Shown in pieces: positions 3,025 to 40,712 of a stretch of DNA of 64,000 nucleotides. The stretch comes from Escherichia coli. Its GTDB lineage: Bacteria; Pseudomonadota; Gammaproteobacteria; Enterobacterales; Enterobacteriaceae. The notes below the pieces were generated by a model. It was not told the DNA's origin. It worked only from the letters and a program-made list of their open reading frames with translations, and ran no database searches. The DNA lies in NCBI RefSeq assembly GCF_041248615.1, contig NZ_CP158426.1. The stretch is one strand, 5' to 3'. A program made the translations under genes and the position numbers. Numbering within the stretch: position 1 is the first letter of the stretch; every line of letters begins with the position of its first letter.

Positions 3025-3702
3025 ATGATGTACCACATTCCCGGCGTGCTATCGCCAAAGGACGTCGCCCGTTTTCGCGAACAACTGGAACAAGCCGAAT
3101 GGGTGGATGGACGCATCACCACCGGCGCACAAGGTGCGCAAGTTAAGAACAATCAACAGGTAGACACCCGCAGCACGTTATACGCCGCCCTGCAAAATGA
3201 GGTGCTGAACGCGGTTAACCAACATGCTTTGTTCTTTGCCGCGGCCTTGCCGCGTACCCTTTCCACGCCGCTGTTTAATCGCTATCAGAACAATGAAACC
3301 TATGGTTTCCATGTGGATGGCGCAGTACGCAGCCATCCACAAAACGGCTGGATGCGCACTGACCTTTCTGCCACGCTGTTTTTAAGCGATCCACAAAGCT
3401 ACGACGGCGGCGAACTGGTCGTTAATGACACCTTCGGGCAACATCGGGTAAAACTTCCGGCAGGCGATCTCGTGTTGTATCCCTCCAGCAGCCTGCATTG
3501 CGTGACGCCCGTAACCCGCGGCGTACGAGTGGCATCATTTATGTGGATCCAGTCGATGATCCGCGATGATAAAAAGCGCGCCATGCTGTTTGAACTGGAC
3601 AACAATATTCAGTCGCTGAAAAGCCGCTACGGCGAAAGTGAAGAGATCCTGTCGCTGCTCAATCTTTATCATAATCTGCTGCGGGAATGGTCGGAGATCT
3701 GA
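3025..3702 (+). CDS. ybiX: PKHD-type Fe(II)/2-oxoglutarate-dependent hydroxylase YbiX
   Basis: ORF 2989..3702 trimmed to ATG at 3025 (MMYHIPGVL..); 225 aa; immediately downstream of fiu (operon). Confidence 0.9.
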
Positions 3703-3775
3703 CGCTTGAACTGCCCGAGTTCGTCCCTATATTAGCTACACTTAACTGTACAAGTATTGATATGGGGAGGACGAT

Positions 3776-4042
3776 ATGGCATCCGGTTGGGCTAACGATG
3801 ACGCCGTCAACGAACAGATCAACAGTACAATTGAAGATGCGATTGCCCGCGCTCGGGGTGAAATTCCGCGTGGTGAAAGCCTGTATGAATGTGAAGAGTG
3901 CGGTGCCCCGATCCCACAGGCCCGTCGGGAAGCCATTCCTGGCGTGCGCTTATGCATTCATTGTCAGCAGGAGAAAGATTTACAAAAACCAGCTTATACA
4001 GGATATAATCGCAGAGGTTCGAAAGACAGCCAGTTACGTTAA
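3776..4042 (+). CDS. ybiI: DksA/TraR-family C4-type zinc-finger protein YbiI
   Basis: 88 aa; CxxC..CxxC motif (CEECGAPIP..CIHCQ). Confidence 0.88.
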   Translation: MASGWANDDAVNEQINSTIEDAIARARGEIPRGESLYECEECGAPIPQARREAIPGVRLCIHCQQEKDLQKPAYTGYNRRGSKDSQLR

Positions 4043-4306
4043 CTACAACTGACGGGATGTATAGCGAGTATAATTTGCACTTTGCGTGGCATTCCGTGCC
4101 TTTAACGCTGTCGTGACTGCCACGCTGCATAAAACAAGTCCATAAGTACAACAAATAATTGGTTTATCAGTATGTTAGATATCAATCAATTTATTTGAAC
4201 AAGGCGGTCAATTCTCTTCGATTTTATCTCTCGTAAAAAAACGTGATACTCATCACATCGACGAAACAACGTCACTTAAACAAAAATCACCTGCGAGAGA
4301 TTAATT

Positions 4307-4567
4307 ATGAAAACTATCAATACTGTTGTTGCTGCTATGGCTCTTTCAACTCTGTCATTTGGCGTGTTTGCCGCGGAACCGGTAACGGCATCCCAGGCAC
4401 AGAACATGAATAAAATCGGCGTGGTTTCTGCCGATGGCGCATCCACCCTCGATGCCCTGGAAGCGAAACTGGCTGAGAAAGCGGCGGCAGCCGGTGCCAG
4501 TGGATACAGCATCACTTCCGCCACCAACAACAATAAATTAAGCGGTACTGCGGTAATTTATAAGTAA
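4307..4567 (+). CDS. ybiJ: DUF1471 family protein YbiJ
   Basis: 86 aa; signal peptide; paralogous in sequence to the mcbA product at 176..436. Confidence 0.88.
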   Translation: MKTINTVVAAMALSTLSFGVFAAEPVTASQAQNMNKIGVVSADGASTLDALEAKLAEKAAAAGASGYSITSATNNNKLSGTAVIYK

Positions 4568-4677
4568 TTCGTAGGCGGATAAGGCGTTTCCGCTACATCC
4601 AGCACAAGTATTTCCCTGTCTGTTTGCCGACAGACGCACATGCTCTAACCCTCATTGATCCTATGTTACCCTTGTTT

Positions 4678-34535: not shown

Positions 34536-34550
34536 TTAGTATAAAAAAGC
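34536..34550. other. lambda att core (O region) at prophage-chromosome junction (attR-type: P arm - core - B')
   Basis: ttagtataaaaaagc = reverse complement of the 15-bp lambda core GCTTTTTTATACTAA; the lower-coordinate flank matches chromosomal attB (..CTTGAGCGAAACGGGAAGG) and the higher-coordinate flank matches the lambda attP P-arm. Confidence 0.85.
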
Positions 34551-34700
34551 TGAACGAGAAACGTAAATGATATAAATATCAATATATTAAATTAGATTTT
34601 GCATAAAAAACAGACTACAAAATACTGTAAAACACAACATATGCAGTCACTATGAATCAACTACTTAGATGATATTAGTGACCTGTAACAGAGCATTAGC
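34551..34700. promoter_or_regulatory. lambda-like attP P-arm (Int arm-type/IHF/Xis/Fis site region)
   Basis: AT-rich sequence (..CGTTTCTCGTTCA next to the core, ..TGCAAAATCTAATTTAATATATTGATATTTATATCATTTACG.. as reverse complement) matching the lambda P arm from memory. Confidence 0.65.
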
Positions 34701-35227
34701 GCAAGGTGATTTTTTGTCCTCTTGCGCTAATTTTTTGTCAACTCACTGGGTTAGTTGAATTTACAACCATGCTCAGTATCTCGATAAGCGCAGGGAGATG
34801 ATGCAGTGGTGGGCGGACTGGCTTGATGAAAGTGTGCTGTAATCCTCATATCCAACCTAAGAGATATGCACAATTTTGTGAATAAGATATTGAGAATTAG
34901 CAAAAGTTTTATTTTGCGTATCATCAATTCAGAATACAAAGTCACATGCTAATGTTCTGCATTGGTATCTTTTGCTTATCCATGTCTACATTATCGCCAA
35001 AATAATAGGTTTTGCCTATCAATTATTTGAATTACTTCCATGAAATTATAACGCACTTGTAATTTTTGATTATTTTTACCTCTCAAGTGTTTTGTTTCTT
35101 CTATCTCTTTGTATTTTTAGCGAAAGTATGCCATATTGCATTCTAATATAACGTGGCGTTGTTTCTGTTTAATGATTTAAATAGTTCAACATAATATTTG
35201 CTAACAAATTATATCCAAGCAAATCAT

Positions 35228-36373
35228 ATGATATTATCATTACAATATATTAGAGGAATAGCATCATTACTTGTTGTTTTATTCCACTTCAGATTCTTGC
35301 TAAATGAGCACTACTCTCAGAAAGATTTGGGTGACCTATTATTTGGGAATGGGCTGTCTGGAGTTGATATATTCTTCATATTAAGTGGATTTATCATCGT
35401 ATACTCAACAAGAAAGAAGGAAGTTAATGATACTTTCTCATTCTCAATTAGAAGAATATTTAGAATATACCCATTACTAATCACATGCTGTTGCATGTAT
35501 TACATAATAAACACTCAATTTCTAACCTATGCTACAGTTGAAAACTTTAGAACCTTACTTATTTCCATCATTCCATTAAATATAAACTGGAATGAAGGCG
35601 CTCCATTCTTTGCCTATAATCTTTTGTACCCGGCCTGGACGATAACATATGAAATTGGTTTCTATGTTTTTTTCGGGGTATCAATGTCTATTTCGCATAA
35701 ATACAGAACAATTATCTGTTCTGTTTTTATAATCATGGTGGTCTCATTTACACAATACTATGTAAATGGAAATATATCATTTTCAGGTGATGTTAGTGCA
35801 GGGTTATTTACAGATAACTGGTTATTAGGATATACAAATGTTATTACATCTCCAATGATGTATGAATTCGTTATTGGGATGTTTCTTTCTGAAATATTTA
35901 CAAACATCAACGAAAGCAAAAGTATTAAAAGGATACTTTCAAAGTATTCGCTTCAAATACTATGGATTTCATGTGGTATATCCATAATATTATTCATTAT
36001 CCAGCGACCTTATGGGCATGGATTGAATGGATTTGGGACTATGGCGATGATACTTATTGCATCATCATTAGTATATGAATACTGCAATATAACACCCAAA
36101 ATAAAAATATTTAATTTCCTTGGTGAAATATCATATTCTTTATATCTAATTCACGCCGTGATACTTGCTTTGTTCTTCTATTATAAGGCAGACCTTGCTG
36201 AAATTGGCATAACTGGTGGATTTTCTGTGTTTTTTTCCTTGGTTATTATCTCAATAACTGCATCATATCCAATATATATTCTCATTGAAAAGCCAATGAT
36301 AAATATAGGTAAACGTTTAATTGACAAGAGAAATAAGAGCATTAACAAAAAAGAAACCGAAATAACAGCGTGA
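35228..36373 (+). CDS. acyltransferase family 3 membrane protein (O-antigen/OafA-type acetyltransferase-like)
   Basis: about 381 aa, 10+ TM; N-terminal YIRGIASLLVVLFH and FFILSGF motifs typical of acyltransferase_3; AT-rich; ORF 35198 (TTG) trimmed to ATG 35228. Confidence 0.75.
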   Translation: MILSLQYIRGIASLLVVLFHFRFLLNEHYSQKDLGDLLFGNGLSGVDIFFILSGFIIVYSTRKKEVNDTFSFSIRRIFRIYPLLITCCCMYYIINTQFLTYATVENFRTLLISIIPLNINWNEGAPFFAYNLLYPAWTITYEIGFYVFFGVSMSISHKYRTIICSVFIIMVVSFTQYYVNGNISFSGDVSAGLFTDNWLLGYTNVITSPMMYEFVIGMFLSEIFTNINESKSIKRILSKYSLQILWISCGISIILFIIQRPYGHGLNGFGTMAMILIASSLVYEYCNITPKIKIFNFLGEISYSLYLIHAVILALFFYYKADLAEIGITGGFSVFFSLVIISITASYPIYILIEKPMINIGKRLIDKRNKSINKKETEITA

Positions 36374-36410
36374 TAATGACAAAGTTAGTGCCGGGATACC
36401 CCGGCACTAT

Positions 36411-37748
36411 TTAATCTATTTCGTAAGTGACAGTGATTATCACTTCTGCATTATTACCCAAAACATTTTGATATATATTCATATTACCTGATAATGTAGT
36501 TGCTCCAGTAAGAGTTATATAACTACTATTTGCATCAACCCTTGGAAGTAAAGCGGTAACTGCTGTTGTTAAATTATTATAGTAGCCTGTACTTCCAACA
36601 TATGCAGCTTTATTGCTTGATACATATGGTAACCCTCCAATTCTGAAACCATCTCCTGACCCAATTAAAGTTATACCAAGGTGACATGTTGCCGTTATGA
36701 TATTGCCACTCCTGACATAATTTCCTTTCTGCTGATAATATGTGGCATTACCACCTACAGTCGGAATCCAAACTCCAGTTTCTATATCACCACATGACCA
36801 GTCTTCTGCTGTTGTTAGTTTTCCAGTAACAATAAATTTACTTCCACCACCAGAATTATAAGGAACAAAAATTGGATTTATTCTTGCATAAGTGTTACCG
36901 GTCTGCTCATTAAGATCATTTCTATCAATAAGAACTTGACCATTTTCGAAGTTTGAAATCTGGCAGTCTGTTACACTCCAGTCTCTTAACTTCACATCAG
37001 CATCCATGACACCAATAAGCTTACCAGCATTACCAATTTTTTCTTTATGCATATTTACATACACATTTCTTACCGTAACAGACTGAGGGAACAGATAATT
37101 AGCAGGATTAGTTTTATCACTTAAAACAGATATTACCCAAGGTCTGTATTGAGTACTTACTTCACAATAAAATCCATCAATAAGCGTTCCAGATGCCGCT
37201 GGCCCAAGTAGTATTCCACCTGTAGAGTGATGCGCACTACCTCCAATTACTCTCCCCTTAACGCAGTTAATATAGGCAAAACATCCTAAATCTTGATTGT
37301 CATAGGCTGACATAGCACAGTCTCTAACTGTTACTCGAGAATTTCCTCCGTCATAAGCTGAGCCATCAGTTTTCTTACCAACTATTGATATAAAGTTACC
37401 AATAGCAACTCGACTATAAAAAGTTTTTTTATAACACCCCTCAATTAAAATATCCCAGTTTTCAAACTGAGCATATATATCATAAATGCTGGCATTCCCA
37501 TAATCTATGAAATCACAATATCTTATTTTCGGCGTATAAACGGCACTTTTTATCTTTATACCACCTAATGCTCTCTCCCCACCTGTGAATCTAATGCCAG
37601 TAACGGTGTAATCGCCTTGATAGAAATTATCTGCGGTAGGATTATTTTCGTCAGAATCATCACCCAATATAATAGCAAATTCACTCCCTGAATAATTAAT
37701 TGTCGCCCCCTTATTTGAATATATAGTTACAGGTCTTATAAACTCCAA
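36411..37748 (-). CDS. beta-helix (pectate-lyase-like) protein, probable tailspike/tail-fibre distal fragment; no ATG start
   Basis: 445 aa, Asn/Gly/Ser/Thr-rich with repeated short beta-strand pattern; first codon in frame after the stop is TTG, with no ATG or N-terminal adaptor domain; AT-rich. Confidence 0.5.
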   Translation of the reverse strand: MEFIRPVTIYSNKGATINYSGSEFAIILGDDSDENNPTADNFYQGDYTVTGIRFTGGERALGGIKIKSAVYTPKIRYCDFIDYGNASIYDIYAQFENWDILIEGCYKKTFYSRVAIGNFISIVGKKTDGSAYDGGNSRVTVRDCAMSAYDNQDLGCFAYINCVKGRVIGGSAHHSTGGILLGPAASGTLIDGFYCEVSTQYRPWVISVLSDKTNPANYLFPQSVTVRNVYVNMHKEKIGNAGKLIGVMDADVKLRDWSVTDCQISNFENGQVLIDRNDLNEQTGNTYARINPIFVPYNSGGGSKFIVTGKLTTAEDWSCGDIETGVWIPTVGGNATYYQQKGNYVRSGNIITATCHLGITLIGSGDGFRIGGLPYVSSNKAAYVGSTGYYNNLTTAVTALLPRVDANSSYITLTGATTLSGNMNIYQNVLGNNAEVIITVTYEID

Positions 37749-38140
37749 AGAATTACTTATCAGATACTCTCCATAAGGAAAAAAATCTCAACTGGTGGTG
37801 AGTACTTTGGTCTGGAGTTTACGTAATTCATAATATTGATTACACCAACATCATAGATAATCGCCACCTTCTGGCGAGGAGCTCCTGATGCAATTAATCG
37901 CCAGGCCTACGCCCATTATTCATGGGTAAATTTTGGACGGAGCCCCCAATTCCATCCTCAATTCTCCCTCGCACTGAGGAGTAGTAAGTGCAATTATTTA
38001 AAAAATCGCAAACAGAATATTATCATTTATTCTTGCATTCTGTTAATTAAAACCACACATAAAAACGTTGATACTTGATAAGTAAGTAGAGTATTATTAA
38101 TGGTTTTAATAACGAACCTTTTAATCATGAGAAGCCTCAA

Positions 38141-39166
38141 ATGACTAGTACCAATAACATAACAAGAAAAAAAATGGATGGAGTAACAATCTTAAGATTT
38201 ATAGCTGCTTTTTATGTGTTTATTTTTCACATTAACATGAGAGTCCCCGTTAATTTTGGAGAGCTTATTAATAAAACCATTAGCAATGGCGTCATTGGCA
38301 TGAGTATTTTCTTCATGCTTTCTGGTTTTGTTTTGACTTATAATTACTATGGTTCCTTGTCAAACAATTACTTCAGGAAGCGAATAGCAAGAATATTTCC
38401 AGCCTATTTATTTTGTGGGCTTTTAACCCTCCCATTTTTGTTATCCAGCGATGCAAGCTTTTTAAAAATGATTGCAAGCATATTCTTGTTTGTTACTGGA
38501 ATGCAATCATGGATTTATCAGACCTTCGATTTTTGGAATTTTAGCGGTACCTGGTCAATATCAGTGGAATTGTTTTTTTATGCCCTGTTTCCATTTTTGA
38601 TAAAAAACATCAACAAAAACAATGTAATTTATGTTTTACTTTTTTCATATTTATCTTCAGCATTATTAATCCCATTATCTGATATAATTCAGGGACCTGT
38701 AGTTTGGTCCGTATATTACGCAACTCCAATATACAGGTTACCAGAATTTGTGGTGGGCGTCTGTATCGCAATACTTTTTTTAAATGGCTATCGTGTTAAC
38801 CATTATACATGGCTATTAAGCATTTTATTATTTCTGTATGCTACCACCCAGCAAAACAATAACTCCATGGGGGTGAACTATCTCACAATTCCTGCGATAT
38901 CAATTATGTTATTGCACCTGGCAAAAATCAACATCAAAAACAACATTGCAAACAGAGCGATCATTTACTTTGGAGATATAAGTTATTCGTTTTATTTGAT
39001 GCAATTACCTATATTATATTACCTGGATCATAATAAAAACTCATTTATTCTTAACTATGGTCTTTTTAGCTGGCTTGTACTTTTTGTTATTAATACTGCA
39101 ATGGCATCATTATCTTATCACTTTCTGGAGAAGAACGATAAAATCAGAAAAATAATTACATCCTGA
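38141..39166 (+). CDS. acyltransferase family 3 membrane protein (O-antigen acetyltransferase Oac-like)
   Basis: 341 aa, multi-TM; ILRFIAAFYVFIFH and FFMLSGFVLTYN motifs; ATG start; very AT-rich. Confidence 0.78.
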   Translation: MTSTNNITRKKMDGVTILRFIAAFYVFIFHINMRVPVNFGELINKTISNGVIGMSIFFMLSGFVLTYNYYGSLSNNYFRKRIARIFPAYLFCGLLTLPFLLSSDASFLKMIASIFLFVTGMQSWIYQTFDFWNFSGTWSISVELFFYALFPFLIKNINKNNVIYVLLFSYLSSALLIPLSDIIQGPVVWSVYYATPIYRLPEFVVGVCIAILFLNGYRVNHYTWLLSILLFLYATTQQNNNSMGVNYLTIPAISIMLLHLAKINIKNNIANRAIIYFGDISYSFYLMQLPILYYLDHNKNSFILNYGLFSWLVLFVINTAMASLSYHFLEKNDKIRKIITS

Positions 39167-39170
39167 TTTA

Positions 39171-39190
39171 TTAGGGGGGTACCCCCCTAA
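39171..39190. terminator. bidirectional hairpin terminator between acyltransferase and tail-fibre assembly gene
   Basis: perfect palindrome ttaggggggtacccccctaa flanked by T/A runs, between convergent stops (39166 and 39208). Confidence 0.65.
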
Positions 39191-39207
39191 TAATACACCA
39201 CATAATT

Positions 39208-39603
39208 TCAACGTATTATCTCTGGCCTTTCTGGCCAGGTTATTTCTGGAATTAAGGACAAATCCACTGACATTAAATTATTAACATATTCCTTCCATAA
39301 CAAAAGATTGTTCTTGTTATTTTCACTTATAATACCGAGTAACAAATCTGACTGCCAGTTCATAATTAAACCATTAGCACTATCCAGCAGACACTGTCTT
39401 TCATTCTCTGCCTCACGAAGTAATTCATCATGTGTTTTTGGCGGCTGCGTAGGTGACGAAAGCTTTCCCTTATCATAGAACCAACCAATTCTTACATTAT
39501 CGGATACAGGTATAACTAACGCATTAGTTGGTTGCCAGGCACTCTCACCATCCCATACCGCAATATTGGTAACAACACCATTTTCTATAACGGCATAGTT
39601 CAT
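39208..39603 (-). CDS. tail fibre assembly protein (Tfa-like chaperone)
   Basis: ORF 39208..39618 trimmed to MNYAVIENGVVTNIAVWDG.. (typical Tfa N-terminus); ATG overlaps tail-fibre stop. Confidence 0.8.
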   Translation of the reverse strand: MNYAVIENGVVTNIAVWDGESAWQPTNALVIPVSDNVRIGWFYDKGKLSSPTQPPKTHDELLREAENERQCLLDSANGLIMNWQSDLLLGIISENNKNNLLLWKEYVNNLMSVDLSLIPEITWPERPEIIR

Positions 39604-40712
39604 CACGCATACTCCCAAATGATTGCAATACCAGCCATTCCGCTACCTCCGGCACGCTGCTGCGTCGCTCCACCGTAGACACAGGCACCACCGCCTCCAC
39701 CACCATGGCCATTAGCATTAATACCTTCGCCTACAATGGCTTGTGACCCAGCCCCCGCACCAAGGATTGAATCGCCGCCAGGCCCCCCCATCGCCAGACT
39801 GCCGGAATACCGAACGCCTGGTGAGCTATAACCGCTTCCAGACCCGATAATATTTGCACCTGTAAATCCCGGCTCAGTATATGCTCCATACGGACCAACA
39901 ACCCCTGGAGCAGTTCCTTCAGCAAGAACATCCCCACCAAGGCCACCTTTGGCAATTATGGTATTGCCGAAAGAGGTTGTTCCCCCGGGAGCACCAACCG
40001 ACGCACTTGCACCAGTGCCACCATATCCGATTGTCACAGTAGTTACGGTTGGATTATCCACGCGAGCTTTAACATACTCCCCGGACATCCCCCCGCCACC
40101 ACAAGCAGCATTATTGGGATAACCGACCTGACAACCACCACCGGCCCCACCACCACCAACAATTTCAACAATAATAAATTTTGTGCCTTTTGTCGGAGTG
40201 TATGTACCTGAGCTTTTAAACACCTGACACTGTATAAGCCTCCCGGAGCCATCTCCCAAACCAAGGTATGCGAGAATGTCATCAATAGTATTTTTGCCGA
40301 TAATATCACGGCCTACCTTAGTGAGGTCGGTCTGCGCAGCCTTATCTGTGCCAGTGAAATACGGTAGCTTATTTGCACCTGTCGCCAGTCCGGCCAGAGC
40401 CGTCAACGTGGCATCAAGCGCCTGATAATCCTTACCGAATGCAGAAGACATTTTGGTAATGAATCCATTCAGGTCGCCATCATCCAATACATCCAGTCCG
40501 CTTTTGTTTGCTGTGTACTGTGCAAGTGCTGCAGCAATAAAGCTGGCCTGCCGAATAACCTTATTGACTTGCGCACTGGAGGCTTTCCCTGCTGTAAATC
40601 CGGATAAAAGCGCGGGCAACGCTTCCCATTCCTCCTGCGATATAACATTGGCATTTCGATCCGTTGCAAACGCTTTAAAGTCATTTTTCGCCATCAGAGT
40701 AATACTCCCCAT
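39603..40712 (-). CDS. tail fibre protein (Mu S/P2 H-like N-terminus, Gly-rich C-terminal domain)
   Basis: 369 aa; conserved N-terminal MAKNDFKAF..SQEEWEALP..; C-terminal glycine-rich repeats. Confidence 0.8.
   Translation of the reverse strand: MGSITLMAKNDFKAFATDRNANVISQEEWEALPALLSGFTAGKASSAQVNKVIRQASFIAAALAQYTANKSGLDVLDDGDLNGFITKMSSAFGKDYQALDATLTALAGLATGANKLPYFTGTDKAAQTDLTKVGRDIIGKNTIDDILAYLGLGDGSGRLIQCQVFKSSGTYTPTKGTKFIIVEIVGGGGAGGGCQVGYPNNAACGGGGMSGEYVKARVDNPTVTTVTIGYGGTGASASVGAPGGTTSFGNTIIAKGGLGGDVLAEGTAPGVVGPYGAYTEPGFTGANIIGSGSGYSSPGVRYSGSLAMGGPGGDSILGAGAGSQAIVGEGINANGHGGGGGGACVYGGATQQRAGGSGMAGIAIIWEYA

Follow-up and report, generated by a model that had tools for sequence, protein, structure and literature searches.

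Does an open reading frame (ORF) that has no ATG, and whose product looks like a phage tailspike without its N-terminal part, represent a working gene or the remains of one? A locus in a 64,000-nucleotide stretch of Escherichia coli DNA (contig NZ_CP158426.1; "the window" below means this whole 64-kb stretch) raises this question. There, a minus-strand ORF of 445 aa at 36411-37748 is preceded by a 392-bp segment (37749-38140). An earlier reading of the locus, made from the sequence only, took the ORF for the distal part of a tail-fibre or tailspike gene left after a recombination event, unless it were translated from a rare TTG, and took the segment for a remnant of the lost 5′ portion or of a recombination site. 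We are highly confident that the ORF is a nonfunctional 3′ fragment of a P22-type tailspike gene, brought in with an O-antigen acetylase gene (oac) and joined to a broken DNA invertase gene.

We first consider what the ORF encodes. A search of 5.8 billion proteins returned 28 matches. Of these, 25 align over 99% or more of the ORF; they are proteins of 505-746 aa whose N-terminal extensions bear PF09008, PF18668, or the beginning of PF12708. The three remaining matches are the E. coli cluster of 445 aa itself (identical to the ORF), a partial sequence of 329 aa, and a weak partial hit. The native length is therefore not 445 aa, and the check for homologues of about that size found none besides the identical E. 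coli cluster, upholding the view of the ORF as truncated. The homologue alignment also places a conserved cap motif, ..VKDFGAVGDG..DDT.. (consensus DFGAxGDG), upstream of the point where the ORF starts. AlphaFold2 modeled the ORF as a beta-helix followed by a beta-sandwich (pLDDT 85.5), and the best Foldseek matches in the PDB were tailspikes: Det7 gp208 (E = 3e-11), HK620, Sf6, and CBA120 TSP2. The label "beta-helix" given to the ORF at the outset was therefore right. The model has a right-handed parallel beta-helix body and no N-terminal cap (PF12708 from residue 154).

Intact versions of the gene came from a blastn survey, with sensitive settings, of 5,426 complete E. coli genomes. The tailspike DNA occurs in 51 of them: 49 at 99.6% identity or more, in attB-lambda context in all three carriers inspected, and two others with intact genes. 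One of these encodes a 649-aa "phage head-binding domain-containing protein" (WP_338384024.1; strain 2018-05-5CC, NZ_AP027886.1; 98.0% nucleotide identity), and the other, in strain 81, a 648-aa "phage tailspike protein" (WP_060618122.1; 81% nucleotide identity). Both lie at tRNA-Arg/intS in P22-like prophages with ejection proteins, Arc/Mnt-type regulators, and an antirepressor, and both show Pfam Head_binding (PF09008) at residues 4-114 and a pectate-lyase-like beta-helix (PF12708) from residue 154. By alignment, the ORF corresponds to residues 205-649 of this P22-type tailspike. Among phage genomes, tblastn aligned the entire ORF to residues ∼180-633 of the 635-aa gp63.1 of St11Ph5 (56% aa identity). 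Megablast against sequenced phages matched the invertase remnant described below and no tailspike; the donor type is known only as a prophage. A PDB search with the ORF sequence gave a chance match, which we discarded.

The N-terminal part of the protein is gone. Pfam and PHROGs returned no match for the 445-aa ORF, the diagnostic N-terminal part of PF12708 is absent from the fragment, and Pfam found the head-binding domain PF09008 neither in the ORF nor in a longer, 485-aa form of it annotated in two other strains. The sequence-only reading was thus correct that the N-terminal adaptor domain is absent. Its suggestion that a displaced N-terminal portion might be found nearby did not hold, as the whole 64-kb window contains nothing that matches tailspike residues 1-169. 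The fragment is truncated relative to its homologues, and the breakpoint falls within a domain, at residue 170. P22-type tailspikes and the N4-type tailspike St11Ph5 gp63.1 begin to align at residue ∼117, the module boundary. Because the junction lies 53 residues inside the receptor-binding module, the fragment lacks the head-binding domain, the neck, the N-terminal cap, and the first coils of the beta-helix.

We next examined how the 445-codon frame begins. Its first in-frame start-type codon past the TGA at 37788-37790 is TTG (37746-37748), and the earliest ATG, an internal Met, is codon 146. These facts agree with the sequence-only reading, whose quoted codon string from TGA GAT TTT to TTG GAG TTT ATA matches the sequence exactly. 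The absence of an obvious Shine-Dalgarno sequence also stood up on inspection: the sole purine-rich, GGAG-like element upstream is GGAGAG (37767-37772), which ends 18 nt before the TTG and is therefore too far away to be usable. The NCBI annotation pipeline (PGAP) nevertheless calls the ORF from the TTG as hypothetical protein WP_029399677.1; the counterpart in E. coli B, BL21, and REL606 is annotated as hypothetical protein WP_000394418.1, and ∼47 other complete genomes are treated likewise. However, tailspike coding sequence does not begin at the TTG. Some 105 bp more of it (codons 170-204, 37749-37854) lie upstream, broken by a homopolymer frameshift: first 12 codons in the ORF frame and then 25 codons one base off it, identical throughout to the intact protein (Table 1). 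The stretch 37778-37854 also aligns to residues 152-181 of St11Ph5 gp63.1. Because the coding sequence runs on through the frameshift, the TTG is not an evolved start and, judged on sequence, is fortuitous. A complete gene would have its own start codon, a ribosome-binding site, and a homologue-like length; this ORF has a TTG, no usable Shine-Dalgarno, and an upstream frameshift, and the fragment has no promoter or start codon of its own.

The frameshift lies in a run of T residues. The match to the tailspike spans 1430 nt in 47 genomes, which have seven Ts (T7), vs. 1431 nt in Br_167, Br_112, and the intact gene; the eight-T tract (T8) is thus kept in Br_167_kylling and Br_112_kylling, where PGAP calls the 485-aa ORF from an upstream GTG inside the invertase remnant. 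The disabling change from T8 to T7 is found in the window and in 46 other genomes. As the alignment reads, this slip broke a fused frame, created the TGA, and left the TTG as the start that an ORF finder picks.

What, then, is the 392-bp segment? It contains only trivial ORFs of 35 and 37 aa, as the statement that it is noncoding had implied. That it is less AT-rich than its flanks is true for 37842-37952 (49.5% GC) and not for the segment as a whole, which has 36.2% GC vs. 36.0% for the ORF; outside that stretch, the segment has 30-32% GC, like the neighboring genes. Its interpretation as a remnant or recombination site likewise holds in part: it does include the ∼105 bp of tailspike sequence and a junction, but it consists mostly of an invertase remnant and the upstream region of an acyltransferase gene. 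The GC-richer stretch matches nt 431-542 of an invertase gene of 555 nt in phage vB_EcoM-689R6 (87.5% identity) and, at 80-90% identity, pinE-type genes in ∼1,500 E. coli genomes. Translated in frame with the tailspike piece, it reads GLRPKFTHE(stop)WA(stop)AWRLIASGAPRQKVAIIYDVGV, with 28 of 38 aa identical. The N-terminal resolvase catalytic domain with its active-site serine is absent from this remnant, which retains only codons ∼138-175 of 184. PGAP flags it as a pseudogene in REL606 and also flags parts of the segment in Br_167.

The invertase and the tailspike meet at a 13-nt sequence, ATGATGTTGGTGT, that is present in both the intact invertase genes and the intact tailspike gene. The P22-like prophage is homologous up to 37854, and other prophages carrying the invertase stub are homologous from 37841 on. 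The left junction reads, in a four-way alignment, as a microhomology-mediated illegitimate crossover. From this point, 3.1 kb of the window (37854-34757) align without a break, at 98.6% identity, to the P22-like argW prophage of NZ_AP027886.1. The match starts at tailspike nt 506 (codons 170-649), covers a complete convergent acyltransferase gene together with the sequence upstream of it, and ends with the final 86 nt of intS, following the order in that genome (tailspike, convergent acyltransferase, intS, tRNA-Arg). The intact 649-aa gene, the retention of codons 170-649, and the junction together bear out the idea of a distal tailspike part left after recombination.

The right end of the captured segment lies beside the lambda-type P arm. 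A homologue of ∼85 nt of the integrase 3′ end sits beside the P arm at the same place in other attB-lambda prophages, and the match to the P22-like prophage stops inside it, at 34757. Because those prophages carry the same stub, the right crossover could have used this ∼85-nt homology. The cargo beyond the integrase stop codon differs among them: nleB2, nleC, nleH1-1, and nleD in an O157:H7 prophage and a transposase in isolate 23. The stub may thus be a recurrent docking point for the exchange of morons and other cargo (oac here, nle genes in O157:H7). The P arm itself (34551-34740) matches, with 97-98% identity, a sequence of K-12 derivatives in which a lambda attP appears to be present. The features of the locus are listed in Table 1.

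Table 1. Features of the tailspike-fragment locus, with coordinates in the window unless another sequence is named
Feature	Coordinates	Strand	Remarks
Lambda att core GCTTTTTTATACTAA (attR)	34536..34550	-	Sequence alignment
Last 28 codons of intS-type integrase gene	34757..34842	+	Right end of captured segment; PGAP pseudogene; ∼89-98% identity to intS of P22-like argW prophages
Acyltransferase 1 (Acyl_transf_3; O-acetyltransferase PHROG 3333)	35198..36373	+	Intact; PGAP start 35228
GC-rich hairpin between convergent tailspike fragment and acyltransferase 1	36386..36409		Within the 98.6% match; carried in with captured segment
445-codon open frame, codons 205-649 of P22-type tailspike gene	36411..37748	-	Beta-helix body and C-terminal beta-sandwich; homology and fold
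Tailspike codons 192-204 FFPYGEYLISNS	37749..37787	-	ORF frame, between TGA 37788-37790 and TTG; residues 193-204 (12 codons) 100% aa identical to intact tailspike
Tailspike codons 170-194 DVGVINIMNYVNSRPKYSPPVEIFF	37778-37852 (homology to 37854)	-	One base off ORF frame; 25/25 aa identical to intact tailspike
T7 homopolymer, -1 frameshift site	37779..37785	-	T8 in intact tailspike and two sister prophages
Left junction, 13-nt microhomology ATGATGTTGGTGT	37842..37854	-	Common to invertase 3′ end and tailspike codon ∼170; four-way alignment
Pin/Gin-type DNA invertase 3′ remnant	37842..37952	-	∼Codons 138-175 of 184, helix-turn-helix (HTH) part; two in-frame stops; no catalytic domain
5′ flank of divergent acyltransferase 2	37953..38140		AT-rich, 30% GC; part of cassette that truncated the invertase gene
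Acyltransferase 2 (Acyl_transf_3; O-acetyltransferase PHROG 3333)	38141..39166	+	Occupies place of invertase 5′ part and second half of invertible segment
Block of invertase stub, acyltransferase 2, and tail-fibre assembly gene (tfa)	Window 37841-39700; sequence L008 4987-6846; sequence L009 4985-6844		98-99.7% identity

Taken together, these data suggest the following history. The ancestor would have been a lambdoid prophage at attB-lambda with a contractile-tail baseplate and a fibre module comprising an invertible host-range segment and a Pin-type invertase. An O-acetyltransferase cassette then replaced half of the inversion system together with the first ∼137 invertase codons, and the remaining HTH stub gained two stops. 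Subsequently, an argW-integrating P22-like phage gave 3.1 kb (tailspike codons 170-649, the convergent O-acetyltransferase gene, and the last 28 intS codons), with the left crossover at 13 nt of chance identity and the right one at the ∼85-nt integrase remnant. Finally, a T8-to-T7 slip in the ancestry of 47 of the 49 carriers made the TGA and left 445 open codons from a chance TTG. Cassette replacement, P22-like donation, and slip are read directly from the alignments. Acyltransferase 1 was likely the selected cargo of the capture, and the tailspike piece would be its untranslated passenger. Strictly, a function for the fragment is conceivable; it is ordinary phage mosaic debris.

Several observations weigh against a dead fragment. 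None of the 49 carrier genomes has lost the 445-codon frame, which PGAP annotates as a protein; with identities of 99.6% or more among the copies, however, there has been little time for decay, and the argument is weak. The confident fold model suggests that a folded product would not be structurally absurd, and N-terminally shortened P22 and HK620 tailspikes do fold. Moreover, the fragment differs from the intact gene by 19 synonymous and three nonsynonymous changes, a ratio that resembles purifying selection, although most of this divergence probably arose while both lineages were functional tailspike genes. The window allele differs from that of REL606 by S88I and Y156C, without a synonymous change, which is too small a number for a test of selection. 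Position 156 is Tyr in every other aligned homologue shown. The pattern is consistent with relaxed constraint, in numbers too small for proof.

The open frame and the confident fold model also speak for a rival explanation, in which the ORF would be translated from the TTG as a free, truncated beta-helix that binds or cleaves O-antigen and acts, with the flanking O-acetyltransferases, in lysogenic conversion or superinfection exclusion. The position of the ORF between two O-antigen acetylase-type genes fits this idea, as does a promoter-like site at 38046-38019 on the minus strand, which is a consensus match only. However, TTG is a rare start, and no Shine-Dalgarno is close enough to this one to be usable; the product would lack the beta-helix cap and first coils; tailspike coding sequence continues upstream of the TTG through the frameshift; the window allele carries replacements at conserved residues; and no homologue has a length of 445 aa. 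In addition, the E. coli B carriers presumably make no O-antigen, which speaks against such a role. Translation from the TTG has no positive support, and we consider it very unlikely. Less probable again is an extended form of the idea, in which expression would start at the TTG, or at the stub GTG in T8 strains, and be switched on and off by slippage of the T7/T8 tract. The product, a free protein that binds or cleaves O-antigen, would form with the two O-acetyltransferases a prophage-encoded module for surface remodelling or superinfection exclusion, a tailspike domesticated by the lysogen.

The tract might also be a phase-variation switch in itself, with the T8 state giving a 485-aa fusion of invertase stub and tailspike from the GTG at 37867. 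Both tract lengths do occur in natural isolates (47 T7 vs. two T8 genomes), and PGAP calls the 485-aa ORF in the T8 strains. However, T8 is the state of the intact donor gene, and one slip explains the pattern. Moreover, the only AGAAGG abuts the GTG with zero spacer, the fused N terminus (VAIIYDVGV) is chance sequence from the HTH remnant, and seven or eight Ts are short for a contingency locus. Because T8 is the donor state and the GTG lacks a spaced ribosome-binding site, we judged a switch unlikely, below both forms of the free beta-helix in probability.

The invertase remnant has a counterpart in the neighboring tail-fibre gene. A 26-bp imperfect dyad, TCTCCCAAACCAAGGTATGCGAGAA, at 40247-40272 (+) within the fibre gene 39603-40712 (-), resembles the pix/gix/cix crossover sites of the Din family and falls at the ..ILAYLGLGDG.. 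stretch of the fibre protein. The dyad looks like what remains of an invertible host-range segment that has lost both its invertase and its partner site; searches for the gix/pix core pattern and for repeats turned up no second site and no meaningful inverted repeats. In the window, the fibre gene is a single 369-aa ORF with Gly_rich_2. In strain NRZ14408, PGAP instead annotates two parts, an N-terminal pseudogene ("missing C-terminus") and, apart from it, a glycine-rich protein, which suggests that the fibre is a mosaic whose parts meet at the pix-like site or close to it. The least probable explanation, that the ORF is an alternative tail-fibre 3′ cassette joined by DNA inversion, as in the Mu G segment (Sv′), the P1 C segment, and the e14 P region, draws on the invertase remnant directly upstream, on the pix/gix-like site, and on the fact that cassettes without start codons are normal in Mu/P1-type systems, but it is in practice refuted by the orientation of the ORF (that of the fibre gene, not inverted), the lack of a second crossover site near it, an invertase with stops and without catalytic domain, a source gene that encodes an entire P22-type tailspike, head-binding domain included, and a junction that is 13 nt of microhomology within invertase coding sequence rather than a crossover site.

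The tailspike fragment and its surroundings belong to a lambdoid prophage of ∼42 kb, of which they form the right end. The prophage sits between ybhC and ybhB, at attB-lambda, and has int, xis, cI/cro/cII, O/P, Q, lysis, and head genes and a contractile-tail-type baseplate. E. coli NRZ14408 (NZ_LT599825.1) has the sequence of the window with 100% identity. From ybhB inward, the order is attR, the 28-codon integrase stub, acyltransferase 1 (+), the ORF (-), the 392-bp segment, acyltransferase 2 (+), the tail-fibre assembly gene (-), and the glycine-rich tail-fibre gene (-). By the record's annotation, genes for tRNA-Thr and tRNA-Asn lie between Q and the holin gene, and the prophage also has a frameshifted Ser/Thr phosphatase gene (∼61842-61997 and ∼62568-63124 for these features). 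Just outside the window is a frameshifted ren, another sign of decay in the prophage.

E. coli B, REL606, and BL21 carry a deleted, 12.1-kb version of the same prophage. In E. coli B (sequence L002, REL606, 3379-4648, vs. window ∼39600-61000), the prophage has lost the stretch that begins with the portal region and ends midway through the fibre gene. In REL606, an "Acb1 family" pseudogene directly adjoins the C-terminal part of the fibre gene, which fits the 12.1-kb lambdaB remnant. The BL21 genome note merely names a 12.1-kb "lambdaB prophage" at attB (PMC4395058), and we found no description of the protein accessions or of the fragment in E. coli B in the literature.

Both acyltransferase genes are flanked by candidate signals. 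A promoter-like match at 38068-38097 (+), a consensus match only, points at the acyltransferase 2 start at 38141. Between the convergent tailspike fragment and acyltransferase 1, the hairpin has a perfect 10-bp stem (TAGTGCCGGG-loop-CCCGGCACTA); it scores as a terminator on the plus strand, lacks a good T tail on the minus strand, and looks like a bidirectional terminator. The block from the invertase stub through the spacer and acyltransferase 2 to tfa (37841-39700) recurs, 98-99.7% identical, in prophages at other sites: near ssrA in IAI39, beside a Mu-type baseplate, and next to pphA in strain 8178. Because this identity holds across different baseplate modules and integration sites, the block moves as a unit. 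In IAI39 and strain 8178, the stub runs 39 nt further, to its own stop codon; the cassette of stub and acyltransferase 2, found complete to that stop at other sites, is therefore older than the tailspike capture.

It was already established that tailspikes are modular, that oac lies beside int in Sf6-like phages, that invertase modules of the Din type exist, and that mosaic junctions form at short homologies. New here are the identification of a "hypothetical protein" as a tailspike fragment and, with it, the donor type, both junctions, and the frameshift. The finding matters little in itself. Nevertheless, it provides a fully resolvable example of phage mosaicism, with crossovers at 13 nt of chance identity and at a ∼85-nt shared integrase stub, in which a lambdoid prophage acquired an O-antigen acetylase gene from a podovirus, with a dead tailspike fragment in tow. 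WP_000394418.1 in E. coli B, BL21, and REL606, and the copies in ∼47 other genomes, deserve a flag as tailspike pseudogene fragments.

How does the locus compare with known systems? The fragment shares with the tailspikes of P22-like prophages (WP_338384024.1 and WP_060618122.1, of P22/Sf6/HK620 architecture) its nucleotide sequence over codons 170-649 (98% and 81% identity), the beta-helix tailspike fold, and the same convergent acyltransferase downstream. Unlike them, it lacks codons 1-169 (head-binding domain, neck, and start of the beta-helix) and is frameshifted, and it resides in a lambdoid prophage with a contractile-tail baseplate at attB-lambda, whereas the host of the P22-like tailspike is a podovirus at argW. 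The sole relative found in a sequenced phage, gp63.1 of the N4-like St11Ph5 (Gamaleyavirus), resembles the ORF over its whole length but is complete at 635 aa and has a different N-terminal adaptor (G7C-type, attaching to gp66); its lyase activity is a prediction (PMC6393563). As with the Oac-type O-antigen acetylase morons beside int in Sf6-like phages, the donor has its Acyl_transf_3 gene immediately downstream of int and in convergent orientation to the tailspike gene; in contrast, the module in the window lies in the equivalent of the b region of a lambda-att prophage and retains only stubs of its neighbors. Finally, as in the Pin/Gin/Cin (Din-family) modules of e14, Mu, and P1, the invertase sequence follows the fibre and tfa genes, and the fibre gene contains a crossover-like site of 26 bp. 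Unlike those modules, however, the window keeps only the last ∼37 invertase codons, with stops, and an acyltransferase cassette has taken the place of the second site and the alternative fibre segment.

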